A stretch of 64,000 bases of DNA, from positions 98,404 through 162,403 of the forward strand of contig CALVWJ010000001.1 of NCBI GenBank assembly GCA_944366945.1, given 5' to 3'. The notes beneath the pieces were generated by a model. It was given only the letters and a program-made list of their open reading frames with translations, did not search any database and was not told the origin of the DNA. This DNA is from an uncultured Clostridia bacterium. Lineage in GTDB: Bacteria; Bacillota; Clostridia; Christensenellales; CAG-138. Position numbers and translations under genes: made by a program. Shown here piece by piece: positions 10,388 to 62,115 of the stretch. The first letter of the stretch is position 1. Each line of letters opens with the position of its first letter.

Positions 10388-11032
10388 TTATCCAAAATGA
10401 AATGGAATCAACAGGTCAAGAAAGACTGCAAGGACGATAGCGCTTGCCACCATCATCATTGTAGCCTTTATTGTATCGCGCTTTAAAACGATCAATCCCA
10501 CAATAAAAACCAGCAGTTCTAAAATGGAACGCATTGCAAAATAGAACCAGCCATAAACAAACGTCATGTTAAACAGAACGGCGATTATAATGGCGGAGAG
10601 CACATTGGATACTCTGCTTTTTCCTTTGGCGTACCAGCAGAGAAACGCCAACAAGGGGGAGATCGCGGTAAATGCAAACCATATCATCGCATAGCTTTTG
10701 GGAAAAAAGCCGGCTACCAGTTTTGAATACAGGTAGTAGCTTCCAACCATCGCGAGAAAAAATACAAATGCGTTAACGGATGCCCGCATGGCGGAATTGC
10801 TGTAAATGGAGATGCATATTCCGAGCAGAGCCCAAATCGCAAAGCGGCCAAGGAAATTGGTAAGATCCAAATACTGAAACAAAAAAGGCAGCGCATTTGC
10901 GGGTGTGGTATCCAGGAATTTTGAAAAAGTCCCAAGCGCAATTCCGAAAAACGCTATGGCAACGGTGTGAAGCACCTGCTTACGTGTAGATATTGGCTTT
11001 TCCTTACAGCGCACGCTGCTTAAAAACGACAT
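10388..11032 (-). CDS. polytopic membrane protein, function unknown
   Basis: About 214 aa from ATG 11032 with about 6 hydrophobic segments. Noticeably lower GC than the flanks. No family recognised. Confidence 0.6.
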   Translation of the reverse strand: MSFLSSVRCKEKPISTRKQVLHTVAIAFFGIALGTFSKFLDTTPANALPFLFQYLDLTNFLGRFAIWALLGICISIYSNSAMRASVNAFVFFLAMVGSYYLYSKLVAGFFPKSYAMIWFAFTAISPLLAFLCWYAKGKSRVSNVLSAIIIAVLFNMTFVYGWFYFAMRSILELLVFIVGLIVLKRDTIKATMMMVASAIVLAVFLDLLIPFHFG

Positions 11033-11458
11033 GGGCGCACCCTTTCCAAATCCAGTTTTATTGCATTTCTGCGGTGAAAAAATAAACGCAGTAAAATGGG
11101 AACTCCGATGCGGAAAACGCTCCATGCTACTGCCTAGGTGGTTTTTCTGCGAAATATCCCGCTTTTTCTCTGGTTTGCGGCAACCTGGGCTTTTCTAAAC
11201 CGTGGTTTCGCCAGCCTACAAACGATGGACTTTGCATTGTAGCTTACTGGGCATCTTCCTAAAAAAGGATGGCCTGGAGCCAAACCTCACAACCACTCCC
11301 ATTGCAGGATGATGCCTTCTTTCGAAATGCGGAAACAGCATGCGAGGGAAAACCCAACAAGCTGCCGTGCGGATGCGTTGAAGCCTGCACCACTTCTGGA
11401 TTCCAAACAAAAGCTGCATCCTATCTGCACGCAGCGCCGAACAGAGGCGGATCAGAAC

Positions 11459-11653
11459 TTACTTCTTTTCGATTTTTGCAACGATAATCCCGCAACATAC
11501 CACCACAACAATGCAAAGGAAAGCCAGCATGCCGGTGATTGTAGCAGCTTCAAGAGAAAAGCCGTTGAAAAAGCCTGCAAAAAGCCCTCCGAAAACGATG
11601 CAGGCAATTGCCGTACCGATGCCGATTAGGATGGACTTGAGAATGGTATTCAT
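11459..11653 (-). CDS. small two-TM membrane protein
   Basis: 64 aa. GGAGG lies 7 nt upstream of the ATG and a TATAAT lies just upstream of that. Two hydrophobic helices and a C-terminal KIEKK. Confidence 0.6.
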   Translation of the reverse strand: MNTILKSILIGIGTAIACIVFGGLFAGFFNGFSLEAATITGMLAFLCIVVVVCCGIIVAKIEKK

Positions 11654-11840
11654 GCAAAAACCTCCAATTATAAGGTGCGCTAAAGTGAATTATAGCATAG
11701 CGGCATTGGTCGCAGCAAGGCGCGGAAAAGGCAGGCGCGAATGTGCATTTTGCATATAGCCTCAGCTTTCATGCCTGTATTGAACAGGTGAAAGCTTATC
11801 CTTTCATTCAGCCCATGGAAGCTTTCTGCCATTTTGGGGC

Positions 11841-11869
11841 TTGCATTCCAATTGCCGGCATGCTACAAT
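11841..11869 (+). promoter_or_regulatory. sigma-A type promoter of the ABC exporter leader
   Basis: TTGCAT (11841-11846), a 17-nt spacer, then TACAAT (11864-11869). Confidence 0.55.
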
Positions 11870-11914
11870 ACATCTCGGCGCATTGCCAATTTTCGCAGAA
11901 AGGAGCCGTGCAGC

Positions 11915-11995
11915 ATGGCAACGATTCGTTTCATTTCGCTCAGTGCAGTATTTGGCGGGATTATTATGTCCGCACGGCTTGTTGACGTGGCATAG
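11915..11995 (+). CDS. candidate leader peptide (26 aa, MATIRFISLSAVFGGIIMSARLVDVA)
   Basis: AAAGGAG lies 9 nt upstream of ATG 11915. The ORF ends 29 nt before a terminator. It is absent from the ORF track because it is shorter than 60 aa. Confidence 0.4.
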   Translation: MATIRFISLSAVFGGIIMSARLVDVA

Positions 11996-12024
11996 GCGAT
12001 CGCCTGCATTCACGCACCATCCGG

Positions 12025-12052
12025 CCGCGGACGCTCTGTCCGCGGTTTTTTC
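12025..12052 (+). terminator. intrinsic terminator between mini-ORF and ABC exporter
   Basis: CCGCGGAC-gctct-GTCCGCGG followed by TTTTTTCTT. Lies 82 nt upstream of the exporter start. Confidence 0.65.
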
Positions 12053-12133
12053 TTCCTGCATGGAAAGGACTTTTAGGAAGGCATATCCCAGCGGGCGGGC
12101 TTTTCGAACGGACTGAACAAGGGAGGGAGATTC

Positions 12134-13972
12134 TTGGAAACAGGGAAAAAGCACACCAAAACAAAAATGAATTGGAAGCTGGTTGCGCGCGCTCTCAAGG
12201 GCAGCACAAGATACCTTGTGCTTGGCGCGGTGTTTCTGCTTGTTGCCGTTGTGGCGGCATATTGTGGGCCGCTGGTAACAAGCTTCACCGTGGACTATGT
12301 GCTCGGCGAAGAAGCGAGCAGCCTGCCTGCGGCGGTCATGCGCTGGATTGATTCCTGGGGCGGCCGGGATTTCCTGCGCGGGAACATCTGGATTTGCGCG
12401 CTTGCGCTCATCGGCTGCACAGCGGTAAACGGCTTTGCAACGTATTTGCGGCGCCGCTATGTTGCGCTTGCCTCTGAAGGCGTGGCCATGACGTTGCGCA
12501 ACACGCTCTATTCCCACCTGGAAAACGTGCCCTACGATTACCACAAGCATGTTTCTACGGGCGATCTCGTGCAGCGCTGTACGTCCGATGTGGAAACCGT
12601 GCGCCGCTTTATTTCCGTGCAGCTGCTTGAAATCGTTCGCACGGTCGCCATGGTTGCGGTCGCCTGCTACATTATGTTTTCAATTGAAGTACGCATGGCG
12701 CTCGTTTCCATGGTGCTACTGCCCATCCTTTGCGTTTCATCCTTCGTGTATTTTAGACGGGTGCGCCGCCAGTTTACCCTTTCGGATGAAGCGGAAGGCA
12801 AGCTTTCCGCAACGCTACAGGAAAACCTTGCGGGTGTGCGCGTGGTGCGCGCGTTTGGCCAGCAGCGGGACGAAGTGGATAAATTTACCGTCTGCAACGC
12901 GGATTTTCGGGATAAAACATTCAAGCTTACGCAAATGATGGGCATCTACTGGGGGGCGTCGGATGCGGTGGGCTATACGCAGATCGCGCTCACGCTGTTT
13001 GTGGGCATCGCGTTTGTGGTGCGGGGCGAACTCACGCTTGGCAATTTGATGATGTTCACTTCCTATGTAGGCATGCTCACCTGGCCGGTGCGCCAGCTGG
13101 GCCGCGTGCTTGCGGACCTCGGCAAGGCGACGGTCTCTTTAGGGCGTTTGGATGAGATCCTATCCGTCCCGGAGGAAGAGGAACCAGGCCGGGCGGAAAA
13201 ACCGGAGATCCGCGGGCGCGTGCAATTTAAGGATGTCTGCTTTGGCTATGATACCTACGATGACGTGTTGCATGAGATCAGCTTCACCGCAGAGCCGGGG
13301 CAGACCATCGCGATCCTGGGTTCCACGGGTTCGGGCAAAACGAGCCTTGTGCAGCTCTTGCAGCGGCTTTATCTTTGCACGGCCGGCGCGATTTATATTG
13401 ATGGCACAAACATCAACGATATCGAACATGGGCATTTGCGCCGGAATATCGGCATCGTTTTGCAGGAACCATTCCTGTATTCGCGCACAATCATGGATAA
13501 CATCCGCCTTGTGCGCCCAGAAGCGGCGGAAGAAGAGGTGCATGCCGCAGCGCGTGTGGCCGCTGTGCACGATGTGATTGAAAGCTTCGAACAAGGATAC
13601 GATACCGTTGTGGGCGAGCGCGGCGTAACGCTCTCCGGCGGGCAGAAGCAGCGGGTGGCCATCGCCCGGATGCTGATGCAAAACGCCCCTATTCTAATCT
13701 TTGATGATTCCATGAGTGCAGTGGATACCGAAACGGATGCTGCAATCCGCGCAGCGCTCAAAAAACGGCGGGAGCACACCACAACGTTTATCATTTCCCA
13801 CCGCATTACAACGCTGTGCGAGGCGGACAACATCCTTGTGCTTGAGCATGGCCGGCTCGTGCAGCAGGGCACGCATGCCGAACTGCTTGCGCAGGATGGC
13901 CTGTACCGCCGCATTGCAGAAATCCAGAACGCGCTGGAGGATGAACTTCGCACGGAAGGAGGGGAAGCATAA
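12134..13972 (+). CDS. ABC exporter, fused permease/ATPase subunit 1 (type I exporter half-transporter)
   Basis: 612 aa. TTG start behind AGGGAGGGAG. Six-TM N-terminal domain, Walker A GSTGSGKTS, signature LSGGQKQR, Walker B ILIFDD. Confidence 0.9.
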   Translation: METGKKHTKTKMNWKLVARALKGSTRYLVLGAVFLLVAVVAAYCGPLVTSFTVDYVLGEEASSLPAAVMRWIDSWGGRDFLRGNIWICALALIGCTAVNGFATYLRRRYVALASEGVAMTLRNTLYSHLENVPYDYHKHVSTGDLVQRCTSDVETVRRFISVQLLEIVRTVAMVAVACYIMFSIEVRMALVSMVLLPILCVSSFVYFRRVRRQFTLSDEAEGKLSATLQENLAGVRVVRAFGQQRDEVDKFTVCNADFRDKTFKLTQMMGIYWGASDAVGYTQIALTLFVGIAFVVRGELTLGNLMMFTSYVGMLTWPVRQLGRVLADLGKATVSLGRLDEILSVPEEEEPGRAEKPEIRGRVQFKDVCFGYDTYDDVLHEISFTAEPGQTIAILGSTGSGKTSLVQLLQRLYLCTAGAIYIDGTNINDIEHGHLRRNIGIVLQEPFLYSRTIMDNIRLVRPEAAEEEVHAAARVAAVHDVIESFEQGYDTVVGERGVTLSGGQKQRVAIARMLMQNAPILIFDDSMSAVDTETDAAIRAALKKRREHTTTFIISHRITTLCEADNILVLEHGRLVQQGTHAELLAQDGLYRRIAEIQNALEDELRTEGGEA

Positions 13973-15804
13973 TGGCAAGCGCTCTTTTGGAACAGGATTA
14001 TGATAAGGATGTAAAAGTGGATCTCTCCATCTGGAAACGCCTTTTCCAGTATGCATTCCGGTATAAGAAAAACACGACGATTCTAATCGTGATCAACATT
14101 TTAATCGCCATTGTGGATATTATTTATCCGCTCATGAGCAGGTATGCCATTGATACGTTCATCGAGGGGGAGACGACCAAGGGACTACCGTTTTTCGTTG
14201 TGCTGTATCTCTGCTTGATCGCATTCCAGGCTTTTGGGGTTTACCTGTTCGTTGCGCGCGCCGGGCGCATCGAGATGGATGTTTCCTATGATATCCGGCA
14301 GGAAGGTTTCCGCAAGCTGCAAGAGCTGTCCTTTTCCTTCTATGATAAAACGGCCGTGGGCTATTTGATGGCCCGCATGGTCAGCGACGTGGGAAGGCTT
14401 TCTGAGATGATCGCCTGGAGCATTGTAGACCTCCTTTGGGCGCTTACTTATGTAATCGGCGTTACGGCAGCGATGCTCGTGCTCAATTGGAAACTGGCGT
14501 TGCTTGTGCTTACCGTGATCCCGCCGCTCGCGGTGATCTCCATGTATTTTCGGAAGAAGATTCTTAAGTATCAGCGCCGCGTGCGAAAAACGAATTCGCG
14601 TATCACTGGTGCGTTCAACGAGGGCATCATGGGCGCGATGACCACGAAGACCCTCGTGCGTGAAGAGGCAAATTACAGCGAATTCCGCGAATTGACCGGA
14701 GAAATGCGCAAAACCTCCATCCGCGCGGCTGTGCTTTCCGCCATGTTTATGCCCATCGTTATGTTCCTGGGTTCCATCGGAACAGGACTTGCGCTTTACC
14801 GGGGCGGTCATGCTGTGCTGATCGGCACGCTCACTTGGGGTACCCTCAGCGCCTTTATCTCCTACACGATGAATTTCTTTGAGCCTGTGCAGCAGATTGC
14901 TGGCATCCTTGCAGAACTTCAGAGCGCGCAGGCAAGCGCTGAGCGCGTGATTTCACTCATCGATACGCCCTGCGAGATCGTGGATACGCCGGAGGTCATT
15001 GCAAAATACGGTGACAGCTTTAACCCCAAACGCGAGAATTGGGAAAGGATCCGAGGCGAGGTGGAATTCAAGCATGTTTCTTTTGCTTATAAGGGCGGGG
15101 AAAAAGTCCTTACCGATTTCAACCTGCATGTGGAAGCCGGAGAGACGATTGCCCTTGTGGGTGAGACGGGCGCTGGCAAGAGCACGATTGTAAACCTCGT
15201 GTGCCGTTTCTATGAGCCAACGGAAGGGCAGGTGCTCATCGACGGTAAGGATTACCGCGAACGCAGCCAGCTCTGGCTGCAGGATAGCCTTGGATACGTC
15301 CTGCAGACCCCGCACCTGTTTTCCGGAACCATAGCCGATAACATCCGTTATGGCCGCAAGGATGCTTCCGATGAAGAAGTACGTGCCGCAGCGCGCATGG
15401 TGCATGCGGAGGACTTCATCCTCAAGCAGGAGCATGGCTATGATACTGAGGTGGGAGAAGGCGGCGTGCGCCTTTCCACGGGCGAAAAGCAATTGATCTC
15501 CTTTGCACGCGTGATCCTAGCAGATCCGCGCATCTTCGTGCTGGATGAAGCCACAAGCTCCATCGATACGGAAACCGAGCAGCTCATCCAGGATGCAATT
15601 ACCAAGGTGCTGCAAAACCGCACAAGCTTTATCGTGGCGCATCGGCTTTCCACCATCCGCAATGCGGACCGCATCCTGGTGATCCGCGGCGGTAAAATTA
15701 CCGAAAGTGGAACGCACCGGGAACTGCTCAATCTGCATGGGTACTATTACGACCTTTACACCACGCAGTTCCGAGAGGAAGCAGCAAACGAGATTCTGAG
15801 TTAA
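13972..15804 (+). CDS. ABC exporter, fused permease/ATPase subunit 2
   Basis: 610 aa. TAATG overlap with subunit 1. Walker A GETGAGKST, degenerate signature LSTGEKQL, Walker B IFVLDE. This is the pattern of a heterodimeric exporter. Confidence 0.9.
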   Translation: MASALLEQDYDKDVKVDLSIWKRLFQYAFRYKKNTTILIVINILIAIVDIIYPLMSRYAIDTFIEGETTKGLPFFVVLYLCLIAFQAFGVYLFVARAGRIEMDVSYDIRQEGFRKLQELSFSFYDKTAVGYLMARMVSDVGRLSEMIAWSIVDLLWALTYVIGVTAAMLVLNWKLALLVLTVIPPLAVISMYFRKKILKYQRRVRKTNSRITGAFNEGIMGAMTTKTLVREEANYSEFRELTGEMRKTSIRAAVLSAMFMPIVMFLGSIGTGLALYRGGHAVLIGTLTWGTLSAFISYTMNFFEPVQQIAGILAELQSAQASAERVISLIDTPCEIVDTPEVIAKYGDSFNPKRENWERIRGEVEFKHVSFAYKGGEKVLTDFNLHVEAGETIALVGETGAGKSTIVNLVCRFYEPTEGQVLIDGKDYRERSQLWLQDSLGYVLQTPHLFSGTIADNIRYGRKDASDEEVRAAARMVHAEDFILKQEHGYDTEVGEGGVRLSTGEKQLISFARVILADPRIFVLDEATSSIDTETEQLIQDAITKVLQNRTSFIVAHRLSTIRNADRILVIRGGKITESGTHRELLNLHGYYYDLYTTQFREEAANEILS

Positions 15805-15817
15805 AATGGATGGGACA

Positions 15818-15851
15818 ATGGAGAGGGGCACACGCCCCTCTCCATTTTTTG
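15818..15851 (+). terminator. intrinsic terminator of ABC operon
   Basis: ATGGAGAGGGGC-acac-GCCCCTCTCCAT followed by TTTTTT. Confidence 0.8.
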
Positions 15852-16416
15852 TAAACGGACCCGCACCAGAAAAGGGATGCAAAACATGTGGGAAGCCCCA
15901 ACAACATGCGGCTTGCATTGCGCCGCAAGAGCATGGCGCGCGAAAAGCCGGCCGAGTGAAATGCATTTTTATGCTTAATAAGGTAACCATTCGCGTGCGG
16001 TTTAGAAGAGCAAAACAGAACCTTAGGGAAGCCACTTCTTGGATGACAACTACCGGGGTTCATGCTATGATAACGGTAGTGCCGGTAACCTGCAATAAGG
16101 ATTACGATTCGGCGCAAACTGAGCTCTTTGAGACGAAAAAACGTTTTTGCATCCCCCGTTGACGCGCAGACACAGAAACGCGGATGCTTTCGGCCATGGC
16201 GCAGGACTTTCCCGAAACAACGGCACGAAAAGGCCCGCATGAACCAGCATGGAAAACAAGGATTGCAGCGCCGCAATGATGAAAAGCGAAATCAGCACCT
16301 TTACGATGGATAAGCTCGAATCCATGCGTGTCGGGAAGCTGGCGGCAAAGCTGAATGTAAGCGCTGCTGCCGCCACGGGATAAAAGAGCGTTTGCCGGGG
16401 AAAACACTTGAGGATT

Positions 16417-17733
16417 ATGGAACAAATACACTTGCCGGATGAATTTTTGAAACGTATGCAGGCGCAGCTTGGCCCGCAATACCCTGCGTTTCTTGCAACG
16501 TATGCGCTTGCCCCCAAACGGGGTATGCGTGTGAATCTTTTGAAGTGCAGCGTGGCGGAATTTCGCGCGCTTAGCCCTGCACCAATTGCGGAAAGCGGAA
16601 TTCTGGAAGAAGGCTTTGTGCTTTCGGAAAACGGTTTGGGGGACGAGAAGGGGCTTGGGAACCATTCCTATCATCTGGCGGGCCTTTTCTATTTGCAGGA
16701 ACCTTCCGCCATGGCCGCCATTGCGCAAGCCCAAGTACATCCCGGCATGCGCGTGCTGGATCTTTGCGCTGCACCCGGCGGGAAAAGCGGAGGTATGGCG
16801 GCGCGCCTTGCAGGTGAAGGATTTCTGCTCGCCAATGAGATTGTGCCAAACCGCGCAAAAACGCTTGCCGCTACGCTGGAGCGACTTGGCGTCCCCAATG
16901 CCGCTGTAAGCTGTGCAAAACCGGAGGCTGTTGCGGAGGCACTCCCTTCTTATTTTGACGTAACGCTTGTGGATGCGCCCTGCTCAGGCGAAGGCATGTT
17001 CCGCAAGGATGCCCGCGCTGTGCTCGAATGGTCCCCTGCGCATGTTACCGCCTGCGCCGCGCGGCAGAGCGCCATCCTGGAGTGCGCTGCGAAGACGGTG
17101 CGCGGTGGCGGTGCGCTGGTTTATTCCACCTGCACCTTTTCAACGGAAGAAAACGAAGGCGTAGTGGAACGCTTCCTTGCAGGGCATCCGGAATTCGCAT
17201 TGGAACAGATGGAGCGCCTTTACCCGCATACCTCCCCGGGAGAAGGGCATTTTGTGGCGCGGCTGCGCCGGCAGGACGAAACCTTTCGGCCGCAGGAGGC
17301 TCTTCCGCTCAAACCCTGCGCGGAAACCGCGTATTACGACGGCATCGCGGAGCTTTTTTTGCAGCCGCCGCAAGGCTGTGCATATAGCCTGCCGGATGGC
17401 CGCATCATGATCGTGCGCGGCTCTCTGCCGCGAGGGTTGGGCAAGCTCTGGGTGCTGCATGTGGGCACTTTTGCTGGGGAGGTCAAAAAGGGGCGCTTTC
17501 TGCCGGCACATAGCTTGTTTCTTGCCGCCCACGGCGGCGCATATCGGAAAAAGCTGGAGCTTCCACTCGAAGATGCGCGCCTTTCTCGCTTCCTTGCGGG
17601 CGAGGCCGTTGCATGCCCGGAAGATTGGAGCGGCTTTGTGCCGGTCTGTGCGGAACGATTCCCCATCGGGTTTGGAAAAGCTGTGGACGGAATGCTGAAA
17701 AACCACTTGCCAAAGGGTCTGCGCGTCGTTTGA
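16417..17733 (+). CDS. rsmF: RsmB/RsmF-family 16S rRNA m5C methyltransferase
   Basis: Start taken at ATG 16417 (MEQIHLPDEF). SAM-binding motif DLCAAPGGKS and catalytic motif PCSGEGMFRKD, followed by a long C-terminal extension. Confidence 0.8.
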   Translation: MEQIHLPDEFLKRMQAQLGPQYPAFLATYALAPKRGMRVNLLKCSVAEFRALSPAPIAESGILEEGFVLSENGLGDEKGLGNHSYHLAGLFYLQEPSAMAAIAQAQVHPGMRVLDLCAAPGGKSGGMAARLAGEGFLLANEIVPNRAKTLAATLERLGVPNAAVSCAKPEAVAEALPSYFDVTLVDAPCSGEGMFRKDARAVLEWSPAHVTACAARQSAILECAAKTVRGGGALVYSTCTFSTEENEGVVERFLAGHPEFALEQMERLYPHTSPGEGHFVARLRRQDETFRPQEALPLKPCAETAYYDGIAELFLQPPQGCAYSLPDGRIMIVRGSLPRGLGKLWVLHVGTFAGEVKKGRFLPAHSLFLAAHGGAYRKKLELPLEDARLSRFLAGEAVACPEDWSGFVPVCAERFPIGFGKAVDGMLKNHLPKGLRVV

Positions 17734-62033: not shown

Positions 62034-62115
62034 CGGTTTACCCTTTATTCACACTTCGGGCATGCAGAAAGTGCTATAATTTAAAACAACAAAGGCTTGA
62101 AAGGAGGCACGCTGC

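Follow-up and report, generated by a model that had tools for sequence, protein, structure and literature searches.

The 64,000-nucleotide (nt) stretch of contig CALVWJ010000001.1 studied here, from an uncultured Clostridia bacterium of the Christensenellales and referred to at its full length as the window, carries two adjacent genes for a heterodimeric ATP-binding cassette (ABC) exporter. The question raised by this locus is why a small open reading frame (ORF) and a GC-rich terminator stand between the promoter and the first exporter gene. We consider it probable that they form a ribosome-mediated transcription attenuator, built around the leader ORF, that controls the two-gene exporter operon. 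The leader is a real, conserved and previously uncatalogued attenuator; the kind of mechanism is already known and the variant of layout is new. The original prediction for this locus had proposed leader-peptide attenuation of the BmrB/BmrCD kind, and the promoter, ribosome-binding site (RBS), 26-codon ORF, terminator and exporter start that it listed were each recovered at their positions by direct reading.

The leader and its conservation

The coordinates of the elements were read directly off the window sequence (11500-12400). The leader comprises the following features:

11841..11869, + strand: sigma-A type promoter, with -35 TTGCAT (11841-46), a 17-nt spacer and an extended -10 TGcTACAAT (11861-69)
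11877..11887, + strand: small 5'-terminal hairpin GGCgcattGCC at the predicted transcript start
11898..11905, + strand: Shine-Dalgarno (SD) sequence GAAAGGAG of the leader ORF, (G)AAAGGAG, with the ATG 9 nt further on
11900..11918, + strand: segment 1, the 5' strand of the anti-antiterminator, running from the SD through the start codon; core AA.GAGCCGTGC (11900-11911); duplex energy -19.0 kcal/mol
11915..11995, + strand: leader ORF of 26 codons plus TAG (11993-11995), ATG at 11915, peptide MATIRFISLSAVFGGIIMSARLVDVA
11968..11983, + strand: segment 2, the 3' end of the ORF; GCACGGCTT.TT (11972-11983) pairs with segment 1, GTCCGC (11968-73) and GGCT (11976-79) pair with the terminator 5' arm
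11984..12016, + strand: middle hairpin, the apex of the antiterminator, spanning the stop codon; -11.2 kcal/mol
12023..12032, + strand: segment 3, the terminator 5' arm GGCCGCGGAC, from the terminator scan and alignments
12038..12051, + strand: segment 4, the terminator 3' arm GTCCGCGGTT with the U-tract, from the terminator scan and alignments

The terminator reads GGCCGCGGAC-gctct-GTCCGCGGTT (12023-12047), is followed by a T-run (T6) to 12051 and has 11 pairs in the terminator scan. In the window it begins 28 nt past the leader stop codon.

Orthologous loci, designated here by L numbers, were collected with exporter subunit 1. A scan of one genome per species gave 54 loci, mostly from uncultured Clostridia and Christensenellales, and a metagenome scan gave 70 more, among them an 80-kb contig with 100% identity and numerous contigs from the human gut; these 70 added just one further lineage. 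The same layout precedes the exporter in 25 genome loci and in L086 and L092. It was found in nearly all exporters at least 62% identical to that of the window and also in two lineages at 42-46%, so that the leaders cover about 13 lineages with exporters 42-100% identical. The SD GAAAGGAG is present in 23 of 25 orthologous leaders, with the single-base variants GAAAGGCG and GAAAGGGG in L015 and L025, and the ATG lies 8-13 nt downstream of it. All 26 leaders have an ORF of 21-34 codons, which in every case traverses segment 2 and stops short of the terminator. All 26 also have a GC-rich intrinsic terminator, 15-34 nt past the stop codon save in L033 (81 nt) and in L013, whose long and atypical hairpin was called at 2 nt. 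In L016 and L036 no leader was found and another gene lies directly upstream of the exporter. L087 and L089, with exporters 55-58% identical, were considered as leader carriers and rejected, as a rubredoxin gene and a plain terminator stand upstream of their exporters and no leader is present.

A covariance model was built from 16 leaders. It has a single match in the window, at 11897-12054 (124.5 bits, E about 4e-30). In 26 further loci, of which 11 had no part in the seed, it matches a leader that immediately precedes the exporter. Because the model singles out the leader of the window and 26 exporter-linked leaders, the arrangement is beyond chance. Rfam yielded no relevant family for the leader even at E<10, the best overlapping hit being a long non-coding RNA model at 18 bits against a gathering threshold of 50. 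The comparison of upstream regions that the original prediction had called for was favourable to it: ORF, terminator and antiterminator pairing are kept in about 13 lineages.

At the promoter, a generic scan made no call for 11841-11869, the -35 matching at 3 of 6 positions only; TTGC[AC]A-17-TAnAAT is kept at the same position in orthologous loci. The transcript would start at about 11876. The 5' hairpin is weak in the window (-4.0 kcal/mol). Its position is occupied by GGCAACATGCC, GGCTGTAAGCC, GGCCCTGTTGGGC, GCGCGCGAGCGCGC or GGTATTTAAATTACC in other lineages, with different stem letters and the pairing kept, and it may stabilise the mRNA against exonuclease. In most orthologous loci (L001-L021 and L092) an AT-rich block of the AATATATT type, not seen in the window, lies about 14 nt upstream of the -35, in places as two copies about 20 nt apart (e.g. 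L018, L019); it may serve as an UP element or an operator. A second GAAAGGAG site in the window, at 62099, was discarded as the ordinary RBS of a 273-aa gene.

Alternative pairings and the open frame

The strongest covariation of all was found in a pairing that the original prediction had overlooked, the anti-antiterminator formed between the leader RBS and the 3' end of the leader ORF (segments 1 and 2). In all 26 leaders segment 1 occupies about -16 to +3, counted from the ATG, and the last 20 or so nt of the ORF are complementary to this SD-to-start stretch, the strand of segment 2 averaging -26 to -8 relative to the stop codon. Of 26 leaders, 25 have their stop codon 2-22 nt beyond segment 2; in L025 the stop codon and the 3' end of the segment overlap. 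The spacer that follows the SD covaries with its partner in unlike sequences: GGAG-CCGTGC pairs with GCACGG-CTT in the window, GGAG-CCGCGAGGA with TCCTCACGG-CC in L006, GGAG-GCAGGCAAAATG with CATTTTGCCTGC-CTTT in L033, GGGG-GCATACAGGA with TCCTGTATGC-CTTT in L025 and GGAG-GTCGC with GCGAC-CT in L029.

For a test of covariation this helix and the terminator helix were scored together, against slid partners and 500 shuffles. In an unfitted MAFFT alignment 84.0% of the cells were paired, against 34-43% in the slid controls, and changes on both sides occurred in 15 of 23 pairs (1-9 in the controls), with none of the 500 shuffles as good. The model-fitted alignment of 24 sequences, which is biased toward the model's own structure, gave 84.9% against 34-41% and 18 of 23 pairs against 3-8, again with 0 of 500 shuffles. 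The terminator helix by itself shows both-side changes in 7 of 10 pairs (MAFFT) or 9 of 10 (model-fitted). Moreover, the duplex of segments 1 and 2 has an energy of -21.3 kcal/mol when each leader is paired with itself and -15.0 kcal/mol across lineages. This RBS:ORF-end pairing would make the leader RBS itself the sensing segment.

The antiterminator joins segment 2 to the terminator 5' arm. In the window GTCCGC (11968-73) pairs with GCGGAC (12027-32), extended by GGCT (11976-79) with GGCC (12023-26), and together with the middle hairpin this makes a 65-nt irregular hairpin. The original prediction had remarked that GTCCGCACGG in the ORF (11968-11977) nearly copies the terminator 3' arm, and indeed it equals GTCCGCGG plus a 2-nt insertion. 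The pairing proposed from this near-copy is kept as a potential: its 10 base pairs are paired in 82.5% of the cells of the unfitted alignment, against 34-45% in slid controls. It is also specific in position: when the best 16-nt partner for the terminator 5' arm was sought in the whole upstream region, 22 of 26 leaders gave one that overlaps segment 2, an overlap with a chance of about 0.26. When the leaders were grouped by us according to their terminator arms, this positional support came to about 8 of 12 independent arm sequences, and it extends to unrelated arms (GTTCGCA with TGCGAAC in L034, GCCCGT...CATG with CATGCCGCGGGC in L019). An equivalent middle hairpin exists in the L006 clade, with a compensatory change from CCGGC/GCCGG to CCGGT/ATCGG in L010. 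The potential for antiterminator pairing is conserved and its covariation is weak.

The leader ORF is conserved in a particular manner. Within clades its length and frame are fixed, L007 and L009 differing by exactly 3 nt, and its last 30 or so nt are invariant at the nucleotide level. The first two thirds vary freely, with no excess at the third codon position (synonymous/non-synonymous codon differences of 25/38, 8/71 and 1/17), and the peptides are not conserved even among themselves, being anything from hydrophobic to highly polar (e.g. MAMKDKNDANNNGTRASSRPAA). Over the same stretch, 31 and 17 stop codons interrupt the other two frames. For a frame set by an SD-proximal ATG, the chance of being open as far as segment 2 is 0.05-0.54 per leader; the product of these chances overstates the significance, the leaders being partly related and chosen partly by ORF length. 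What is conserved of the mini-ORF across the leaders is a frame open through segment 2 and not an amino-acid sequence. Since the frame is kept and the amino acids drift, selection appears to act on the translation of the ORF and not on the peptide.

Many peptide-export loci have the order small gene, terminator, ABC exporter. The mini-ORF might encode a functional small peptide, with the hairpin as a leaky terminator that fixes how much peptide is made per exporter, in the manner of bacteriocin operons. The resemblance of layout agrees with this, as does the presence of the peptide transporter TmrAB among the closest bacterial heterodimers of solved structure. However, the ORF sequences diverge without third-position bias even between exporters about 90% identical, and the invariant nucleotides at the ORF end are explained by RNA pairing. 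The covarying RBS:ORF-end helix suits a switch and not a structural gene; in addition, the ORF lacks a double-glycine leader, and a peptidase domain is not among the Pfam matches of the exporter. We consider a functional peptide highly improbable.

The converse view, that the ORF is incidental and the RNA alone is a riboswitch or a protein-bound antiterminator, takes its appeal from the three alternative helices, which would also suit control by a ligand or a protein, and from the leader RNA being well folded (z = -2.4). We give it very little credence. Against it stand not only the lack of an Rfam match described above but also the loop of about 55 nt between segments 1 and 2, in which neither sequence nor length is conserved across lineages. 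In each case this loop is an open frame, beginning 8-13 nt beyond a consensus SD and closing shortly after segment 2.

Sensing of amino-acid supply was likewise rejected, as the leader ORFs contain no run of a single residue and no cluster of rare codons. One recurrent feature of the peptides is R-P, L-P or Q-P near the C-terminus, which is the in-frame CCU that pairs with GGAG. The anti-SD CCU/CCC is an in-frame proline codon in most lineages (e.g. CGG CCC in L006 and CGG CCT in L018, with CGG CTT at 11975-11980 in the window), and this frame is kept more often than expected. The proline is probably a by-product of the pairing with GGAG.

Taken as a ribosome-mediated attenuator, the leader has a short ORF with its own SD, a terminator between ORF and gene, an antiterminator that shares an arm with the terminator, and an anti-antiterminator that would block the antiterminator by default. 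In the mechanism proposed, segment 1 would be the leader RBS, segment 2 the last 25 or so nt of the ORF, segment 3 the terminator 5' arm and segment 4 the 3' arm with the U-tract. With no ribosome on the leader, 1:2 and 3:4 would form and transcription would stop at about 12051. During normal translation the ribosome would melt 1:2, cover segment 2 and stop at the UAG just beyond it, and 3:4 would again form. A ribosome held at the start or at early codons, or a queue reaching back to the RBS, would mask segment 1 and leave segment 2 free. The freed segment 2 would then pair with segment 3 before segment 4 is made, and RNA polymerase would enter the exporter genes. The element would gauge how the ribosome clears the leader relative to transcription.

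In the window the energies of the anti-antiterminator, antiterminator and terminator are in balance, at -28.1, -29.5 (of which -11.2 belongs to the apex) and -18.3 kcal/mol, and the means across the leaders are -21.1, -19.8 and -19.4. The position of the ribosome was scanned on RNA truncated where the terminator 5' arm ends, with the footprint masked and the minimum-free-energy fold taken. For the cut RNA of the window, a footprint with codons 1-3 in the P site masks segment 1, and the fold of minimum free energy is the antiterminator. Equilibrium base-pair probabilities with the full terminator, which did not discriminate between the states, were abandoned in favour of this cut-RNA folding.

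Several observations weigh against ribosome-mediated attenuation. Once the complete terminator is present, it wins at equilibrium for every ribosome position; the choice must therefore be co-transcriptional. The scan of ribosome positions is clean in the window and noisy in many orthologues, and later positions, as in a stall in the middle of the ORF, let 1:2 re-form in the thermodynamic model. For the antiterminator, changes on both sides occur in 4 pairs against 2-5 in slid controls, which is due in part to the main clade keeping the same GGCCGCGGAC arm. Its pairing of a leader with itself is no better than across lineages (-17.8 against -16.5), in part because most lineages share GGCCGCGGAC arms and the stretches searched are GC-rich. 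Moreover, no known arrest motif is common to the leader peptides.

The exporter genes and their surroundings

The features downstream of the leader terminator are:

12052..12133, + strand: spacer between terminator and exporter, with CTTCCT (12052-57), an anti-SD-like block (about 12090-12106) and the RBS AGGGAGGGAG (12120-29)
12134..13972, + strand: ABC exporter subunit 1, 612 aa, with transmembrane domain (TMD) and nucleotide-binding domain (NBD); LSGGQ intact, Walker B IFDDS without the catalytic Glu
13972..15804, + strand: ABC exporter subunit 2, 610 aa; degenerate signature LSTGEKQL, canonical Walker B LDEA
15818..15851, + strand: operon-end terminator ATGGAGAGGGGC-acac-GCCCCTCTCCAT followed by T6, read from sequence

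Subunit 1 starts at the TTG at 12134, behind AGGGAGGGAG. This start is supported because tblastn alignments reach query residue 1-5 in most orthologues and because an identical TTGGAAAC start is found in L001, L002 and L021. The two genes share 1 nt, where the stop of subunit 1 meets the start of subunit 2. Both proteins contain PF00664 (ABC_membrane) and PF00005 (ABC_tran) in Pfam. Subunit 1 has Asp in its Walker B where the catalytic Glu is expected, and the two genes are adjacent half-transporters, each with TMD and NBD, whose degenerate motifs are complementary, as in heterodimeric type IV exporters of the TM287/288, TmrAB, BmrCD and EfrCD class. To judge from these motifs, the exporter has one degenerate and one consensus ATP site, like TM287/288, TmrAB and BmrCD.

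Of the BmrCD-type exporter that had been predicted, the heterodimer with the degenerate LSTGEKQL stands, and a specific likeness to BmrCD does not emerge from the scores. The subunits score 303 and 326 bits to YheI/YheH (BmrC/BmrD), 322 and 374 bits to TmrB/TmrA, and 301 and 367 bits to TM288. As YheI and YheH score no better than TmrAB or TM288, the exporter was not assigned as an orthologue of BmrC (YheI) and BmrD (YheH). It reaches the cut-off of no NCBIfam resistance model, the Tet(46) A/B models giving 244-266 bits against a cut-off of 1250.

In the spacer of the window, CUUCCU (12052-57) is predicted to pair with the exporter SD when the terminator hairpin is formed (SD unpaired 0.01), and the SD is predicted to be free (0.75 unpaired) when the 5' arm is held in the antiterminator. 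A second, translational layer acting by sequestration of the exporter SD is not claimed, as the predicted effect varies among the other loci, in some of which it is reversed. The anti-SD-like block at about 12090-12106, GC[AT]G[CT]GG[GA]CGG[GT]C[CT]TTTC, is common to the clade of the window.

Other loci (L005-L014, L027 and L029) have a fifth segment immediately after the U-tract, a copy of the terminator 5' arm that can pair with the 3' arm, e.g. at about 2939-2960 in L006. The z scores of this pairing are -2.6 to -4.6, and the U-tract would sit in its loop. A compensatory change is seen in L014, GTCTGCGGC with GCCGCAGAT, and L029 does the same with an unrelated sequence. The fifth segment may act on the read-through mRNA; it was set aside as a part of the switch in the window, being absent from the clade of the window.

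Downstream of the exporter, after its terminator and about 550 nt, the window carries a gene for an RsmF-like 16S rRNA cytosine-C5 methyltransferase (16408-17733). An RsmF-like gene also follows the exporter in L001, L003, L015 and L020 and is thus a conserved neighbour. An ORF of 118 aa (15806-16162) spans the operon terminator; Pfam gives no match for it, the other loci contain no relative, and it is probably not a gene. On the upstream side there are two divergent, hydrophobic ORFs on the minus strand, 10388-11125 (245 aa, with a sub-threshold DUF6518 match) and 11459-11653 (64 aa, small and membrane-like). Neither has relatives beside the exporter in other loci, and the idea of conserved upstream genes or of a nearby regulator gene found no support.

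Relation to known attenuators and biological meaning

In Bacillus subtilis chloramphenicol, erythromycin and lincomycin induce bmrCD through the translation of bmrB, an ORF of 53 codons with terminator, antiterminator and anti-antiterminator all within the coding region, at nt 60-162 (Reilman et al. 2014, PMC4191407). The present locus is like bmrB-bmrCD in having a short leader ORF before a heterodimeric exporter whose first subunit has the degenerate Walker B, and in its alternative terminator, antiterminator and anti-antiterminator; in bmrB read-through rises on ribosome inhibition. It differs in that the ORF has 26 codons with the terminator 28 nt past its stop, which is not the layout of the BmrB system, that the leader's own RBS is the 5' strand of the anti-antiterminator, and that no control of the AbrB type is evident. 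The BmrB/BmrCD-like attenuation that was predicted can accordingly be kept as far as its logic goes, by the conserved ORF, terminator and antiterminator, and not as regards the system itself, from which layout and exporter scores set the locus apart. As judged from the sequences compared, the likeness to BmrB is one of logic only and the leader is not a member of that system.

In vmlR of B. subtilis a 3-codon upstream ORF (uORF), named uORF(MIN), lies in the anti-antiterminator hairpin, which is opened by an initiation-arrested ribosome (PMC9226507), and Listeria Rli53/lmo0919 works as vmlR does (PMC8079631). Here also the start of the leader ORF is within the anti-antiterminator, and arrest of initiation there would free the antiterminator. 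The additional layer of vmlR, sequestration of the SD of the main gene, is weakly suggested in the present leader. In vmlR and lmo0919, however, the uORF of 3 codons occupies a hairpin bulge and its SD lies outside the hairpin, whereas here the entire loop is taken up by an ORF of 21-34 codons, whose SD and 3' end are the two strands. Furthermore, VmlR and Lmo0919 are soluble ABC-F ribosome-protection factors, and the proteins encoded here have transmembrane domains; neither a 3-codon uORF nor an ARE ABC-F gene is present at this locus.

For Listeria Rli59, PMC8079631 describes, after Dar et al. 2016, a small-ORF leader with a premature terminator before the ABC transporter gene lmo1652, of unknown function, with read-through increased by lincomycin, erythromycin and chloramphenicol. 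As far as that description goes, the present leader has the same composition. The host belongs to a different bacterial order, and no Rfam family of Listeria small RNAs matches this leader. For patAB a terminator-based attenuator is described, with no mention of a leader ORF in the passages of PMC4319486 consulted. The paper on TrexAB contains no particulars of regulation.

The E. coli trp attenuator has three states, and a ribosome stalled on segment 1 leads to 2:3 pairing and read-through. The same three-state logic of four segments applies here. In trp, segment 1 contains the Trp codons of the ORF and senses charged tRNA, whereas here it is the RBS and there are no runs of regulatory codons. 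The present leader combines features of the bmrB, vmlR and Listeria leaders.

These comparisons bear on the signal to which the switch would answer. The same RNA could respond to any slowing of translation relative to transcription, such as a nutrient downshift, assembly defects or stress, with the exporter in a housekeeping role. This is unlikely in our opinion, although several facts would fit it. The sensing segment is the RBS, with no conserved drug-specific arrest motif, and the exporter stays below every NCBIfam resistance cut-off. VmlR is induced by ribosome assembly defects too (PMC9226507), and BmrCD (PMC4191407) and lmo1652 (PMC8079631), the latter of unknown physiological role, answer several unrelated inhibitors. 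Nevertheless, all the attenuators of such design that have been studied experimentally respond to ribosome-targeting drugs. By analogy with them, ribosome-targeting antibiotics are likely to be the natural inducers of the present attenuator.

An exporter coupled to a translation-sensing leader would now be seen in at least three lineages of Firmicutes, namely Bacillus bmrB, Listeria Rli59 and the Christensenellales with related Clostridia; the leader architectures differ. Exporters with a degenerate site may have been coupled to sensors of translation speed independently, which would imply a conserved job linked to stalled translation, an idea that we regard as quite doubtful. If it were true, such exporters might remove peptides or other products of arrested ribosomes, which would fit their peptide-transporting relatives TmrAB and TAP. 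The exporter class would in that case no longer count as a collection of unrelated drug pumps, and a switch with the RBS as sensor would respond to any delay in leaving the start codon.

The mechanism itself is a textbook one and the finding is useful rather than surprising to specialists, with a clean layout that lends itself to reporter tests. It adds a well-supported cis-regulatory RNA, conserved and so far without annotation, which is carried by uncultured Christensenellales as well as by other Clostridia, many of human or animal gut origin, and extends the link between heterodimeric ABC exporters and ribosome-sensing leaders beyond the Bacilli. The prediction that follows is of commensals with an efflux pump that would remain silent until translation is disturbed. 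This can be relevant to the response of gut communities to macrolides, lincosamides, phenicols and pleuromutilins, and to cryptic inducible resistance genes.

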